A stretch of DNA of 64,000 nucleotides from the NCBI GenBank assembly GCA_965203805.1, contig OZ241917.1:2240001-2304000 (forward strand). Reading direction: 5' to 3'. Shown here piece by piece: positions 14,058-19,364 of the stretch; positions within the stretch are counted from its first letter, which is position 1, and each line of letters begins with the position of its first letter. A program made the position numbers and the translations under genes. The notes below the pieces were generated by a model. The model was not told the origin of the DNA. It ran no database searches and was given only the letters and a program-made list of their open reading frames with translations. The stretch comes from Candidatus Latescibacterota bacterium (lineage in GTDB: Bacteria; Latescibacterota; UBA2968; GCA-2709665).

Positions 14058-15527
14058 ATGCCCTCCAGACCTAATCTGCTTCTCATTACAACCGACCAGC
14101 AGCGCGGCGACTGCCTTGGATGCGACGGCCATCCGGTACTGGAAACCCCTTATCTGGATGAGCTGGCGGAGGGCGGGGCGCGCTTCAACCACGCCTACAC
14201 CTCCGTCCCTTCCTGCACGCCCGCGCGCGCGGGTATCCTCACGGGGATGGACCAGTGGAACCACGGCCGGCTTACGATGACGGGCGCCGACCCGCTCGAG
14301 TATCCGGCCACGCTGCCTGCCGAACTCGCTCACGCGGGTTACCATACCCAGGCCGTGGGCAAAATGCACTTCCACCCCCAGCGCAGACTCTACGGCTTTC
14401 ACCACATGGTCCTGGACGAGAGCGGGCGGCGAATGGGCAACTTCGTCAGCGACTACCACATTTTCTTCGAAAAACACAAAGAGGGCGAATACGGTTACCG
14501 GGACCACAGCGTGGACTGGAATTCATGGATGGCCCGCCCGTCCCATTTGCCGGAACACCTGCACCCCACCCATTGGACGGCATCCGAGGGTATCCGGTTC
14601 CTCGAAAACCGGGACCCGACCAAACCCTTTTTTCTCTGGTTGTCGTTCGCCCGCCCCCATTCCCCGTACGACGCACCGCAGACGTACTACGACATGTACA
14701 TTGACAATCCCGATGTGCCCAAAGCGGCCGTGGGAGCGTGGTCGGCCCGGTACGACCGGCAAATCGCCGACGTAAACGCCCCGCGCACCCGCCGCACCGA
14801 TGCCGAAACCCATCGCGCACGCGCGGCGTATTACGGCAACATTACCTTCATCGACCATCAAATCGGCCGCGTCCTGCACGAACTGCGGAGACGCGACCCA
14901 GCGGCAGCGGCAAACACCCTGATCCTGTTCACGTCGGACCACGGCGACATGATGGGCGATCATCACCACTGGCGAAAAACCTACGCGTATGAAGGCTCCG
15001 CCCGAGTCCCCTTCATCCTCAAATACCCGGACACCTGGGAAATGCCCCGCAACAGAACGCTGGCTCAACCAGTAGAACTAAGAGACATCATGCCCACGTT
15101 CCTCGATGCCGCAGACGTCGCCGTCCCCGAATCCGTAGACGGCGGCAGCCTGTTGAATCTCTCTCGAGGCGACAAAGAAGGCTGGCGGGCGTTCGTTCAG
15201 GGCGAGCACACCACCTGTTACGACAGAGAACACGGTATGCAGTACGTTACCGACGGCCGGGAAAAGTACATCTGGTTCCACCACACCGGGGCCGAGCAAT
15301 TCTTCGACCTCGAGGCCGACCCACTGGAGTGCAACGACCTCGCGGCCGTTGCCGATCGACAATCACGCATCGACGTCTGGCGCGGACGCCTGGCCGAAGT
15401 CAACGAAACGCGCGGCGACCCGCGGGGCCGGAACGGCGAACTCGTGCCCCAGCCCGGCGGCGCGCTGTCGCTCTCGCCCAACTACGAGAAATGGAAACAG
15501 CGCGCGAAAGCGCTGGAACGCGGGTAG
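14058..15527 (+). CDS. Sulfatase (formylglycine-dependent, arylsulfatase/choline-sulfatase-like), no signal peptide
   Basis: RPNLLLITTDQQRGD, catalytic CxPxR motif SCTPARAGILTG, GKMH, PHSPYD and SDHGDMMGDH. Confidence 0.92.
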   Translation: MPSRPNLLLITTDQQRGDCLGCDGHPVLETPYLDELAEGGARFNHAYTSVPSCTPARAGILTGMDQWNHGRLTMTGADPLEYPATLPAELAHAGYHTQAVGKMHFHPQRRLYGFHHMVLDESGRRMGNFVSDYHIFFEKHKEGEYGYRDHSVDWNSWMARPSHLPEHLHPTHWTASEGIRFLENRDPTKPFFLWLSFARPHSPYDAPQTYYDMYIDNPDVPKAAVGAWSARYDRQIADVNAPRTRRTDAETHRARAAYYGNITFIDHQIGRVLHELRRRDPAAAANTLILFTSDHGDMMGDHHHWRKTYAYEGSARVPFILKYPDTWEMPRNRTLAQPVELRDIMPTFLDAADVAVPESVDGGSLLNLSRGDKEGWRAFVQGEHTTCYDREHGMQYVTDGREKYIWFHHTGAEQFFDLEADPLECNDLAAVADRQSRIDVWRGRLAEVNETRGDPRGRNGELVPQPGGALSLSPNYEKWKQRAKALERG

Positions 15528-15642: not shown

Positions 15643-16116
15643 ATGCCTGTGAAATACTGGCTGATGAAGTGCGAACTCAACGAATGCAGCTTCGAAGACC
15701 TGAAGCACAACCGGCCCGACAGCACCGGAAAGTGGCGGGGCGTGCGCAACTATCAGGCCCGGAATTTCATCCGCGACGACATGCGGACGGGCGACGTCGT
15801 CCTATTCTACCAGTCCAACTGCGACGAACCCGGTATCGCCGGCCTTGCTGAGATCGTTCGGGCGGCCTATCCCGACCCCTCGGCCTTCGACCCGGAAAGC
15901 AACTATTACGACGACAAGTCCACGCCTGACGATCCCCGATGGTTCTCGGTGGACGTAAAATGGAAAAAGGCCTTCGAGACGTACGTGCATCTCAAAGACC
16001 TGAAGGCGAATCCCAAACTGAAAGAAATGCTTGTTGTCCGGAGGGGCCAGCGTCTGTCCATCCAGCCCGTCAAAAAGAGGGAATTTGAAATCGTCTGTGA
16101 AATGGGTGGGATCTGA
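15643..16116 (+). CDS. EVE domain protein (thymocyte nuclear protein-like)
   Basis: YWLMK, WRGVRNYQARNFIRD, GDVVLFYQS, AYPDPSAFDP and RLSIQPV. Confidence 0.9.
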   Translation: MPVKYWLMKCELNECSFEDLKHNRPDSTGKWRGVRNYQARNFIRDDMRTGDVVLFYQSNCDEPGIAGLAEIVRAAYPDPSAFDPESNYYDDKSTPDDPRWFSVDVKWKKAFETYVHLKDLKANPKLKEMLVVRRGQRLSIQPVKKREFEIVCEMGGI

Positions 16117-16184
16117 TCCTCCGCACCCCCTGTTGTTTTATCCGCCTGCCCGTCCGCACAACCCGTTTATACGACACAATCCTA

Positions 16185-17018
16185 TCACGGCGCTTGTGGA
16201 ACTTCCACCGGCAGATCCAGCCGGTCGCCCCATTCCTTCCACGACCCGATATAGTTGCGCACATTCTCATATCCCAGCAGGCGCAACGCCAGGTACGAAT
16301 GGGAGGAACGGTACCCGCCCTGTCAGTAACACGCCACCGTCTGCTCCGGCATCACACCCGCCCGCTCGTACATTGTGCGCAACTGAGCCGCCGGCTTGAA
16401 CGCGCCGGACTCGTCCAGGTTGTTCAGATACTCGATATGCACGGCATCGGGCACGGCGCCGGCCCGGGCAGAGCGTGCCACCCGTCCAAAATACTCGTCG
16501 TCGCTGCGCGTATCCAGCGGCACGAAATCCGTACTTTCGAGGGAATCCCGAATCTCCTCGTAGCCGATATGGCGCCCCGCCACCGGCGCAACTTCGAATG
16601 TGGCCGCGTCCGGGACCGGGGCCTCCCGTGTCGTCGCGTATCCCGCCGCCGTCCAGGCCCCCAGCCCGCCATCCAGCACATGTACGTCCGCGTGACCCAG
16701 ATATTCGCAGATCCAGAAGCCGCGCGCCGCCCGCATCCCCGAGTCGTTCTCGTAAAACACCACCGTGGCATCGGAGTCGATCCCCCGGCTTCCCATCAGA
16801 TACGCCAGGGTCCACATGAAAGCCTCGAAAACCTCCTGTTCAGTGTTGTTCAGACTGATTCCGTAGAGGTCCAGGTGCAGCGCCCCCGGAATATGTCCCG
16901 CTACGTATTCGTGGGTGGCCCGGACGTCCACAATGCACGTCGATCCGTCGTGGAGGCGGCCCCGCAACTGCCGCGGCGTCATCAACAGTTCGGGATTCGC
17001 ATATCCTTTTTCATCCAT
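16185..17018 (-). CDS. Two-domain rhodanese/sulfurtransferase with an in-frame TGA at the catalytic position (probable selenoprotein)
   Basis: The ORF track stops at TGA 16325-16323, but the frame continues Y-[TGA][45 protein letters not shown] to TGA-TAG at 16187-16182. This restores the YCxGGxR active-site loop and the NYxGSWxEW rhodanese signature. N-terminal motifs GHIPGA and VLDGGLGAW. Confidence 0.88.
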
Positions 17019-18082
17019 CACCGTCCCTCCTGCTCGAAATAGGCGTCGATTTCAATGCATCTCCCGCCCTGCCGCGCCGAATCCCATCCGGCCAGGATCG
17101 GCGCGAGGGAAAACAGGCCGTCGTGATAATCGTTCAGGATGCCCTCGCGGCGCCCCGAACGCACGGCCTCCACGAAGATCCGGTCCTGCTCGTACCATGG
17201 GTCGAAGTCCTCGTCCCGATAGACCGTCTCTCCGTTCAAGTCGATTCGATCGTAATTGAATATCTCCATCCGCCCGCCCTCGAAAAAAAACGTGAACCAG
17301 GGCTGCGGCGTTCCCGACGGGTCCGCCCGCACAAACGTCATCGTCATCGTCGCGCCGTTATCCATCAGGAAGTGGAATGACGACGAAAGCGGTTCGCTGA
17401 AGACGTCGGACTTTTCACAATAGAACGCCTGGACGCTCTCAACCTCCAATCCGGTCATGAACCGGGTGTAATCCACGGCGTGCACGCCCCAATCCAGGGC
17501 CGGACCGCCCGACTTGCCCATCTGGTACCACCACGACGTCCGGTCGTTCCGCGACTTCAACCGGGGCAGCCCCCCCACGGACCGAAACACCGCGTGTACG
17601 ATCCGCTTCTCCGACAGAATGCGACGCGCCTCCTGGAACAGCGGCCGATACCGTTCCCGAAAACAGACCGTGCTCAACACGCCCGCTTCTCGAATCGCCC
17701 GGTCGATTTCCAGAGCCACGTCCATCCGAATCGCTTGGGGCTTTTCGCTGAACAGATGAATCCCCCGGCGCACGGCTATGACTTCGACGTCCGTGCGCGC
17801 AAAAGCCGGCACGACCGAAAAGAGAACGTCGAACCGCTCGTTCTCCACCATCTCGCGCCCATCGGCATAGACCGCCGGAATGCCAAAGCGCTCTGCCGTG
17901 CGACTCAGGGCGTCCGCGTCCACGTCGCATGCCGCCACGACGTCCACGCCCAGCTTTTTCAGGTTCGGAATATGGGTCTGGTTCGCCCATGACCCTGTGC
18001 CGTAAACCGCCGCTCGGACGGGCCTTCCGGCTATGCTCGCCGATTCCGCCGGGAGGTCGTTTTCGTTCGGTCGCCCTGACAC
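17018..18082 (-). CDS. Gfo/Idh/MocA family NAD(P)-dependent oxidoreductase
   Basis: VYGTGSWA Rossmann motif, LFSEKP and LDWGVHAVD; GTG start at 18082; TGATG overlap with the rhodanese gene. Confidence 0.87.
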   Translation of the reverse strand: MSGRPNENDLPAESASIAGRPVRAAVYGTGSWANQTHIPNLKKLGVDVVAACDVDADALSRTAERFGIPAVYADGREMVENERFDVLFSVVPAFARTDVEVIAVRRGIHLFSEKPQAIRMDVALEIDRAIREAGVLSTVCFRERYRPLFQEARRILSEKRIVHAVFRSVGGLPRLKSRNDRTSWWYQMGKSGGPALDWGVHAVDYTRFMTGLEVESVQAFYCEKSDVFSEPLSSSFHFLMDNGATMTMTFVRADPSGTPQPWFTFFFEGGRMEIFNYDRIDLNGETVYRDEDFDPWYEQDRIFVEAVRSGRREGILNDYHDGLFSLAPILAGWDSARQGGRCIEIDAYFEQEGR

Positions 18083-18086
18083 ACCC

Positions 18087-19364
18087 CTACCCCCTGGCAA
18101 GGGACTCCGCCGTCTGCACGATGGTTTGCTCCTCACCCTGGAATCTGGCCGGTTCACCGTAATAGGGGTACGCGTTGGGTTCGTACCCGCCCTCCTCGTA
18201 TTGCCGGTCGGTACAGAGGTATCCGATCTCGTCGTTCGCATATCCCACCGGCCACACGTCGTCGGCGTCCACCAGCCCCCTCAGTCGTTTTTCGATCGCG
18301 TGACCGATTTCCTGTACCGGCTCGCCCGGTATGGTGACCCACGTCAGCGGGCCCACCGCCATCAACTGCATCTCCGTCGAGCGGCTGTCGGGAATTCCGC
18401 CGTTTTCGATCATCTTCAAGACCCCGTTCGCCCACGGCCCGGTCAGCAGGCGGCCTCTTGCGCTTTCGTCGTCCGCCATCTCCCGCAGTTTTTCGATCGG
18501 ATCGTGTTCGCCGAATGCGATCTTCACGTCGGAACGCCGCGCGTTCAACTGCGAGGACCGCCGGGTCTTCAGACTCCCGGCCACGCGCACCACCTCACGG
18601 CCCAACTCCTCTCCGCACGCATCCAGTTCAGCCTTGCTGGCCGACTTGAAGCGCGCGGTGTCCGGGTCCACCACGGCCGGGCGAATATTGCCGAAGCATC
18701 CTGCCAGGTATAAGGCCTTGCATCCGATTGACTCCTCGATCACCGTGCGTGCGATTCCCGCATAGTCCGGCGAAATATAGCCCTCGGACCCGCTCTTCGT
18801 TGTGGTGTGGCAGGAATAGTGAAACAGCACCGCCAGCGGCGCCCCATCCTCCGCCTCCACAAGAAGCACGCGGACGCGACGGTCCACGATGCCGCCGAAG
18901 TTCAGCATCATGCCGGACGTGCCCGGCAGCGGCCTGCGGCAGATATTGAAGTGTGCCGAACCGCAGCCCACCCCGAACCGGACCGGTCTCAAATCCGCCG
19001 CCGCCCGCGCGATGCTGTCCGCGGTTGCGATCTCGATCCTTTCCAGCCACCCGTCGGGCGGCTCCATGCCCAGCGAAGGCAGCGTGGCGGGCGCCGAGTG
19101 CGTGTGGCTGCACGCCACCATCACGTGATCGCCCGGGATACCGCATGCCTCCCGAACCCGCGCCCGAATCCGGTCGGTGGTCTCCTTTGCCACGCCGATG
19201 ACGTCGAGGGTCGCGACCGCCGTCCTCGTCTCCCCTTCTTCGAACACGATCGCACGGACTTCCAGAGGGTACAGCACCGAATGCGAGGGATTCGAGCTCC
19301 AGTGGCCCTGAAGTACGGGACCCGGCTCGGGCGTGATGTCCGCCACCGCAACACCGCTTTTCAT
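18087..19364 (-). CDS. Neutral/alkaline ceramidase-like metallohydrolase
   Basis: GVAVADITP, CSHTHSAP, FHYSCHTT, ISPDYAG, IPGEP, GYAN and YEEGGYE; AAAGGAGG RBS. Confidence 0.82.
   Translation of the reverse strand: MKSGVAVADITPEPGPVLQGHWSSNPSHSVLYPLEVRAIVFEEGETRTAVATLDVIGVAKETTDRIRARVREACGIPGDHVMVACSHTHSAPATLPSLGMEPPDGWLERIEIATADSIARAAADLRPVRFGVGCGSAHFNICRRPLPGTSGMMLNFGGIVDRRVRVLLVEAEDGAPLAVLFHYSCHTTTKSGSEGYISPDYAGIARTVIEESIGCKALYLAGCFGNIRPAVVDPDTARFKSASKAELDACGEELGREVVRVAGSLKTRRSSQLNARRSDVKIAFGEHDPIEKLREMADDESARGRLLTGPWANGVLKMIENGGIPDSRSTEMQLMAVGPLTWVTIPGEPVQEIGHAIEKRLRGLVDADDVWPVGYANDEIGYLCTDRQYEEGGYEPNAYPYYGEPARFQGEEQTIVQTAESLARG

Follow-up and report, generated by a model that had tools for sequence, protein, structure and literature searches.

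A predicted selenocysteine-containing rhodanese gene of a Latescibacterota bacterium with a candidate split SECIS in its coding region

We present here a two-domain rhodanese/sulfurtransferase gene of a Candidatus Latescibacterota bacterium in which an in-frame UGA stands in the place of the catalytic cysteine codon and is followed, within the coding region, by two conserved RNA helices, H1 and H2. The gene lies in a 64,000-nucleotide stretch of contig OZ241917.1 (assembly GCA_965203805.1), called the window below; positions are those of the window unless a genome coordinate is given. Our preferred reading, to which we assign a probability of about 0.6, is that of a functional selenocysteine (Sec) rhodanese gene recoded by a split SECIS composed of H1 as a clamp and H2. 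A shade less firmly, we also favor the view that the RNA is a natural split bacterial SECIS, in which a SelB-binding hairpin located in the coding region some 100 nt past the UGA would be brought close by the covarying helix H1.

Gene and protein product

The full gene occupies 16185..17018 on the minus strand, as delimited by frame reading, Pfam, and PDB alignments. Its ATG (17018..17016) overlaps by one base the TGA stop of the upstream gene, and an alternative GTG lies one codon 5′, at 17021. Read through from the ATG, the product is 277 amino acids (aa) long, with Sec as residue 232. The internal TGA (16325..16323, minus strand) is preceded by ...TVACY and opens the active-site loop U-Q-G-G-Y-R-S. 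Exactly 45 sense codons separate it from the terminal TGA (16187..16185), which forms a double stop with a TAG at 16184..16182. Frame reading here agrees with the original prediction of 45 in-frame codons closed by two stops. RNA positions are counted from the U of the Sec codon, which is +1 (the codon being +1..+3), such that position +n corresponds to window position 16326 − n.

Pfam places the Rhodanese domain (PF00581) in two stretches of the product (122.8 bits). The protein has two tandem rhodanese domains, and the catalytic loop of the C-terminal one, (C/U)-x-x-G-x-R in the family, reads U-Q-G-G-Y-R. In PDB alignments, the catalytic Cys of solved two-domain rhodaneses falls in the TGA column ("hCQthHRS" in 1e0c against "yUQGGYRS" here), which bears out the earlier reading of Y-stop-QGGYR where YCxxGxR was expected. 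The best solved relatives are 8k55, RhdA of Azotobacter vinelandii (1e0c), 1uar of Thermus, and SseA of M. tuberculosis (3hzu), which align over their full length with E values of 8e-40 to 2e-36. They share with the present protein an inactive N-terminal and a catalytic C-terminal domain but carry Cys where it has the predicted Sec, in a loop that in RhdA is C-Q-T-H-H-R-S. Two more specific models scored below their curated cutoffs, namely 3-mercaptopyruvate sulfurtransferase (NCBIfam NF008557; 103.4 bits, cutoff 250) and the single-domain rhodanese_LYCAU (seleno)protein (NF041203; 38.1 bits, cutoff 115).

Public records of the Sec-rhodanese are 231 aa long. Twenty of the best 120 clusters measure 230 to 232 aa at 83% coverage, and two NCBI records of the 231-aa form are named rhodanese-like or sulfurtransferase. 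Since Sec would be residue 232, these database proteins end at the internal TGA, as anticipated from the tendency of gene callers to cut such genes short.

A Sec-containing "rhodanese-related sulfurtransferase, COG2897" was predicted in 2005 from three Sargasso Sea sequences (PMC1088965) and was seen again in Olavius symbionts (PMC1976440). A 2026 review names the family "Rhodanese-like form 4, UxxG" (PMC13188914). Given these precedents, the protein described here adds a member to a family known from computational prediction. It shares with the COG2897 family two rhodanese domains, Sec for the catalytic Cys, the U-x-x-G motif, Cys-containing homologs, and a prediction made by computation only. 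The evidence supports a real, misannotated selenoprotein gene of this family, and likewise supports a predicted reading of the in-frame UGA as Sec at the rhodanese catalytic site.

The gene is flanked downstream by a gene for an EVE-domain protein (15643-16116, plus strand), beyond which lies a sulfatase gene (14058-15527, plus strand). On the other side are genes for a GFO/IDH/MocA oxidoreductase (17018-18241, minus strand), the stop of which overlaps the start of the rhodanese gene, and a neutral-ceramidase-like protein (18087-19364, minus strand). The GFO/IDH/MocA and EVE neighbors are conserved only within the genus and therefore offer no functional clue to the rhodanese.

Conservation of the UGA codon and alternation with cysteine

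Among 40 related genomes, the full-length match contains a single TGA in 37 and none in 3. At the codon level, in a set of 40 loci that leaves out genome G031, the position is TGA in 37, TGT or TGC in 3, and another stop in 0. The 37 comprise the present locus and those of 36 of 39 relatives, a count that contradicts the private nonsense mutation against which the original prediction had been set. The peptide after the TGA is conserved across the 40 loci. A phylum-level sample of 168 genomes, with orthologs accepted at E <= 1e-70, gave orthologs in three families and 54 relatives, of which 48 have one TGA and 5 have none; that of G031 is split by a contig problem and carries the TGA on its C-terminal piece. 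Across 80 named loci, the codon is TGA in 48 (Latescibacterota, some labelled Gemmatimonadota, and many Poribacteria) and TGC or TGT in 32 (Acidobacteriota, Vicinamibacterales, Binatia, and others). Homologs have Cys in the UGA column, and conservation continues in frame beyond it, a pattern characteristic of selenoprotein genes and the one that the original prediction had proposed to look for in orthologs.

A metagenome scan with a motif for the UGA context returned 45 loci: 37 further Sec forms, 4 loci too short after the UGA, and 4 chance matches, which carry stops downstream. When 78 Sec forms are compared over the 41 codons after the UGA, the codons that differ are synonymous in 75% of cases in this frame, compared with 10% and 7% in the two alternative frames, which indicates that the 3′ part is translated. 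By this comparison of codons, the sequence after the UGA is under purifying selection.

The TGA itself, which the original prediction had proposed to verify at 16323, is kept in contigs from two other studies, which extend across the gene and show 16 and 25 differences from it, none of them affecting the TGA. A metatranscriptome library, in which DNA carry-over is possible, supplied one contig that reads across the TGA. Parts of the rhodanese gene are without cover by RNA-library contigs, the depth of which is uninterpretable either way. One such contig (X18, record 9; about 91% alike) has a 1-nt gap at 16237 (+89), in the H1 3′ arm, and a second gap in the 3′ flank; the gap at 16237 could be an assembly or alignment artifact or a strain difference.

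A gene tree rooted on Acidobacteriota places all Sec forms in one clade with one Cys group nested inside it, and parsimony requires 2 changes between Sec and Cys. On this tree, the Poribacteria Sec-rhodaneses (L072-L117, L146) form one clade nested among those of Latescibacterota (L047-L062, L113). That nesting, read from the gene tree without species-tree comparison or support values, suggests a transfer of the rhodanese gene and its RNA structure between these two sponge-associated phyla. Three Cys forms (L081, L125, and L135) keep traits of Sec forms, namely R-S-S, G-D-R-L-D-L-P, and partial or full H2 stems, which look like remnants of Sec-to-Cys reversion or preadaptations.

Selenocysteine machinery and other selenoprotein genes

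The source genome is a single contig of 5.87 Mb. A genome search found selA (477 bits), selB (371 bits), and the gene for tRNA-Sec (73 bits) adjacent to one another at 1.838-1.841 Mb (G000), together with selD (359 bits), which itself contains one in-frame TGA. All four exceed their curated cutoffs, and the expectation that the organism would have SelABCD was borne out.

The selD gene appears to be a selenoprotein gene (TCG-U-AAK; G000:C1:2775468-2776391, plus strand) and lies outside the window; its SECIS is canonical, with a 7-bp stem and the loop GGUC at +21..+24. Also outside the window is a gene for an fdhA-like molybdopterin oxidoreductase with an in-frame TGA (CSRA-U-HAPTVA; G000:C1:787610-790421, plus strand; locus L147, 211-3021). 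The Pfam Molybdopterin domain of its product (316-739) spans the Sec at residue 393, and an E. coli-type SECIS with the loop GGUCU starts at +15. A third gene outside the window, on the minus strand (G000:C1:294061-295038; locus L148, 162-1139), encodes a secreted AhpC/TSA (Prx-like) protein with U-P-T-C by way of a TGA. The Pfam domain of the protein spans the UGA, its C-terminal parts are DUF1573/Ig-like and EF-hand-like, and its gene has a hairpin from +14 with the loop CGGGU. The hairpins of these three genes begin at +14 or +15 and have G-U in the loop at about +22..+24.

A genome-wide scan by codon log-odds, narrowed with a redox motif and a filter for hairpins, left 275 candidates; 2 were checked by Pfam, and both were confirmed. 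The genome carries, as judged from its sequence, at least two selenoprotein genes beyond selD and the rhodanese gene.

Conserved RNA helices downstream of the UGA

The RNA elements are all on the minus strand. An 11-nt spacer (+4..+14; 16312..16322) is unpaired in the minimum free energy (MFE) and consensus folds. It is followed by the 5′ arm of H1 (+15..+26; 16300..16311), the 3′ arm of which lies at +85..+96 (16230..16241), with A88 bulged or mismatched. H1 is drawn from covariation, RNAalifold, the MFE fold, and the tree. Between its arms, a helix of moderate support, H3, pairs +39..+45 (16281..16287) with +66..+72 (16254..16260). H2 is a hairpin at +101..+119 (16207..16225) with a 6-bp stem, in which +101..+106 pairs with +114..+119, and a 7-nt loop, UGGAUCU (16213..16219), which is UGGAUYU in the family; it is the proposed SelB-binding part of the SECIS.

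Selection on the RNA is visible at synonymous sites. Within the genus, synonymous variability is 0.00-0.03 at codons 231-245, against about 0.2-0.4 elsewhere. Two blocks, -1..+42 and +102..+117, have lower third-position entropy in 78 Sec forms than in 34 Cys forms. The Leu35 codon (+106..+108) is CUG in 78 of 78 Sec forms and is specific to them. Within the H2 loop, G108 and G109 are invariant in 74 of 74 sequences, and G108, a synonymous site, is G in 78 of 78.

Covariation points to the same two helices. In an all-against-all scan, 18-93, 21-90, 102-118, and 103-117 were the top canonical covarying pairs. The H2 stem shows compensatory changes from C102-G118 to U-A in 11 sequences and from C103-G117 to A-U in 4, the latter by two synonymous changes. 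Across 74 distinct Sec forms, 93.3% of cells in H1 and H2 are paired, a share that drops to 34.5-51.9% once the partners are slid, and 52 cells hold double changes, against 12.8 ± 2.8 in shuffles (0/500), a kind of control that overstates significance here because the sequences are related. On a tree built from the 220 codons upstream of the UGA only, pair 18-93 alternates among C-G, U-A, and U-G through 7 changes, with 0 mismatches in 78 sequences; 6 changes fall on 21-90, and 3 each on 102-118 and 103-117.

RNAalifold run without an input structure gives H1, with A88 bulged, and H2. The MFE fold of the window sequence holds H1, H3, and H2 and leaves +1..+14 single stranded. The MFE of the 126-nt segment is not better than that of shuffles (z = -0.73), and thermodynamics alone therefore lends no support to H1 or H2.

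In the 34 Cys forms, 64.7% of cells pair (65.9% in H1 and 62.3% in H2), and several pairs are broken in most of the sequences. Part of the pairing potential of H1 stems from the conserved amino acids Y-R-S-S and W-K-E-W, and Cys forms retain pairing in 66% of H1 cells. Among the 37 metagenome Sec loci, H1 has 10 of 10 pairs in 31, 9 of 10 in 2, and 8 of 10 in 4, and H2 has 6 of 6 in 35 and 4 of 6 in 2; the four chance matches reach at most 6 of 10 and 3 of 6, respectively. The search pattern contained six bases of the H1 5′ arm, which biases these counts slightly toward H1 and not at all toward its 3′ arm or H2. From these sequence comparisons, H1 and H2 are conserved, covarying helices specific to the Sec forms.

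Short contigs of other organisms pile up in four sequencing runs on two segments of the window, 16207-16262 (H2 and the H1 3′ arm) and 16300-16332 (the UGA and the H1 5′ arm), with a word depth of up to about 1400. Such a pattern is consistent with the RNA elements being very highly conserved at the nucleotide level among abundant members of the community.

Proposed recoding mechanism

In the mechanism that we propose, the UGA at 16325..16323 would be decoded as Sec in place of the catalytic Cys, and the enzyme would presumably carry sulfur as a selenenyl-sulfide (Se-S-) rather than as a cysteine persulfide. After the 11-nt spacer, H1 would form and loop out about 58 nt of coding sequence. It would close a domain of 82 nt, with H2 following 4 nt later. 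H2 would be the hairpin bound by SelB, and H1 would act as a clamp that places H2 beside the mRNA entrance of the ribosome when the UGA occupies the A site. In size and in having G in its loop, H2 resembles hairpins to which SelB binds. Once H1 has paired, a path of about 21 nt (11 + 4 + 6) would connect the UGA with the loop of H2.

The bacterial SECIS consensus, as given in section 5 of a 2026 review, has its apical loop 16-37 nt after the UGA and G then G/U in the first two loop positions (PMC13188914). The proposed path falls within that range. The small loop of H2, with G at its second position and then G, conforms to the loop rule, but the hairpin lies 103 nt beyond the UGA in sequence, far past the 16-37 nt that the consensus model allows. 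H1 starts at +15, as the simple hairpins of the selD, fdhA-like, and Prx-like genes do. This start position, the path of about 21 nt, and the fit of the H2 loop to the rule are our grounds for reading H2 as the SelB site and H1 as the clamp. H2-like hairpins occur 27 times across the source genome, that of the rhodanese gene included, with no evident link to in-frame TGAs.

The proximal region and alternative readings

No conserved stem-loop with an apical loop 16-37 nt after the UGA was found in the rhodanese gene, and an Rfam scan of 16150-16400 (E <= 10) returned no SECIS family and only a chance match to a miRNA family. The original prediction was right that a canonical E. coli-type SECIS is not visible here. 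Its suggestion that an unusual SECIS might be specific to the lineage fails against the ordinary E. coli-type hairpins of selD and the fdhA-like and Prx-like genes in the same genome; the unusual RNA structure belongs to the rhodanese gene family, not to the lineage. The GGGUAC/GUACCU stem that it had pointed out does exist in this sequence (+10..+15 with +30..+35) but is not conserved, with 12-33 broken in 22 of 74 sequences and 15-30 in 43 of 74.

Several other local structures were tried and rejected. Covariation in hairpin 6-12/19-25 and in the triloop hairpin 5-11/15-21 was not beyond that of shuffles (400/500 and 500/500, respectively); the middle helix 29-37/77-84, taken from the MFE fold, is 79.1% paired and not better than shuffles; and hairpin 28-39/47-59 is 75.7% paired, not above shuffles.

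These structures bear on an alternative that we regard as unlikely, although it is the best of those considered: the gene would be a real Sec gene with a weak proximal hairpin as its SECIS, and H1 and H2 would serve another purpose linked to Sec, such as ribosome pausing at the UGA, mRNA shielding, or expression tuning. The candidates are the triloop hairpin 5-11/15-21, hairpin 6-12/19-25, and stem 9-15/30-36. Pairing reaches 93.2% of cells in the triloop hairpin and 84.7% in the stem, which has one covarying pair, 12-33 (AU in 28 and GC in 23), and a stable helix from +15 could pause a ribosome without binding SelB. Against this stand the shuffle results for the two hairpins and the fact that their apical loops begin 8-9 nt after the UGA, in the footprint of the ribosome and short of the 16-37 nt range. 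The stem suffers from the breaks at 12-33 and 15-30 just described. All three candidates compete with H1 for +15..+25, and none explains the frozen G108 or the Sec-form-specific Leu codon in H2.

A second alternative, which we consider improbable, retains H1 and moves the SelB site to the apex of one long hairpin from +15 to +96, made up of H1, H3, and the loop +46..+65, with H2 as an accessory. The MFE fold is indeed a single long irregular hairpin from +15 to +96, and H3 (39-45 with 66-72) shows moderate covariation, being 81.7% paired with 33 double-change cells against 13.7 in shuffles (0/500). However, pair 44-67 of H3 fails to form in 38 of 74 sequences, the middle helix 29-37/77-84 is unsupported, third positions in +46..+65 are equally variable in Sec and Cys forms, and RNAalifold finds no conserved apical structure there.

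Least of all do we credit a TGA that is a nonsense mutation or sequencing error, yielding a 231-aa product without the catalytic loop, or a UGA decoded as Cys or Trp. Gene callers and public records do end at 231 aa, and PMC13582414 mentions a Cys decoder of the tRNA(ReC) type, but the TGA is conserved in two phyla and in metagenomes and is carried by contigs of other studies, the codons after it are under purifying selection, a shortened protein would lose the whole active-site loop, and the genome has complete Sec machinery and other selenoprotein genes, such that the pseudogene form of this explanation is already contradicted.

Relation to known systems and implications

The proposed split SECIS resembles the E. 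coli fdhF-type SECIS and the bacterial consensus in its 11-nt spacer before the first helix and in the short G+C-rich H2 with G's in its loop. It differs from the fdhF type in that 103 nt, not 16-37 nt, separate H2 from the UGA, with an 82-nt domain closed by a helix in between. It also differs from the published COG2897 representative, for which a simple stem-loop just behind the UGA was reported, in having a long-range helix and a hairpin about 100 nt downstream. A search of open-access main texts yielded no description of a natural distal bacterial SECIS, and the word "selenoprotein" is absent among the matches listed for open-access literature on Poribacteria and Latescibacteria.

Textbook accounts of Sec insertion in bacteria require a hairpin immediately after the UGA. 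Su, Li and Gladyshev (2005, Nucleic Acids Res 33:2486) reportedly found that a distal E. coli SECIS worked when a flanking complement paired beside the UGA; the construct is said to have been artificial, with the SECIS in the 3′ untranslated region, and of low efficiency. H1 and H2 would follow the same logic as that engineered distal SECIS. Unlike the construct, the present arrangement would be a natural one, within the coding region and conserved across phyla.

The enzyme itself adds little, since Sec-rhodaneses of this type were predicted in 2005. Its RNA architecture, which departs from the textbook bacterial SECIS, could matter more. In the Latescibacterota and Poribacteria that are associated with sponges and corals, the Sec form is fixed, and its entries in public records are 231-aa stumps that lack the active site. 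Search tools and manual surveys examine only the 40-60 nt after the UGA (PMC13582414, PMC13188914). If the proposal is true, tools that scan 16-60 nt after the UGA would miss a whole class of such genes, and the rule that the SECIS immediately follows the UGA in bacteria would be broken, with the rhodanese gene as a natural counterpart of the design engineered in 2005. Recombinant selenoproteins could then be designed in ways that leave the residues just after Sec unconstrained. If H1 and H2 are a working SECIS, the constraint on its placement would be spatial, not linear, and a wider sequence space would be available for evolving conversions of Cys to Sec.
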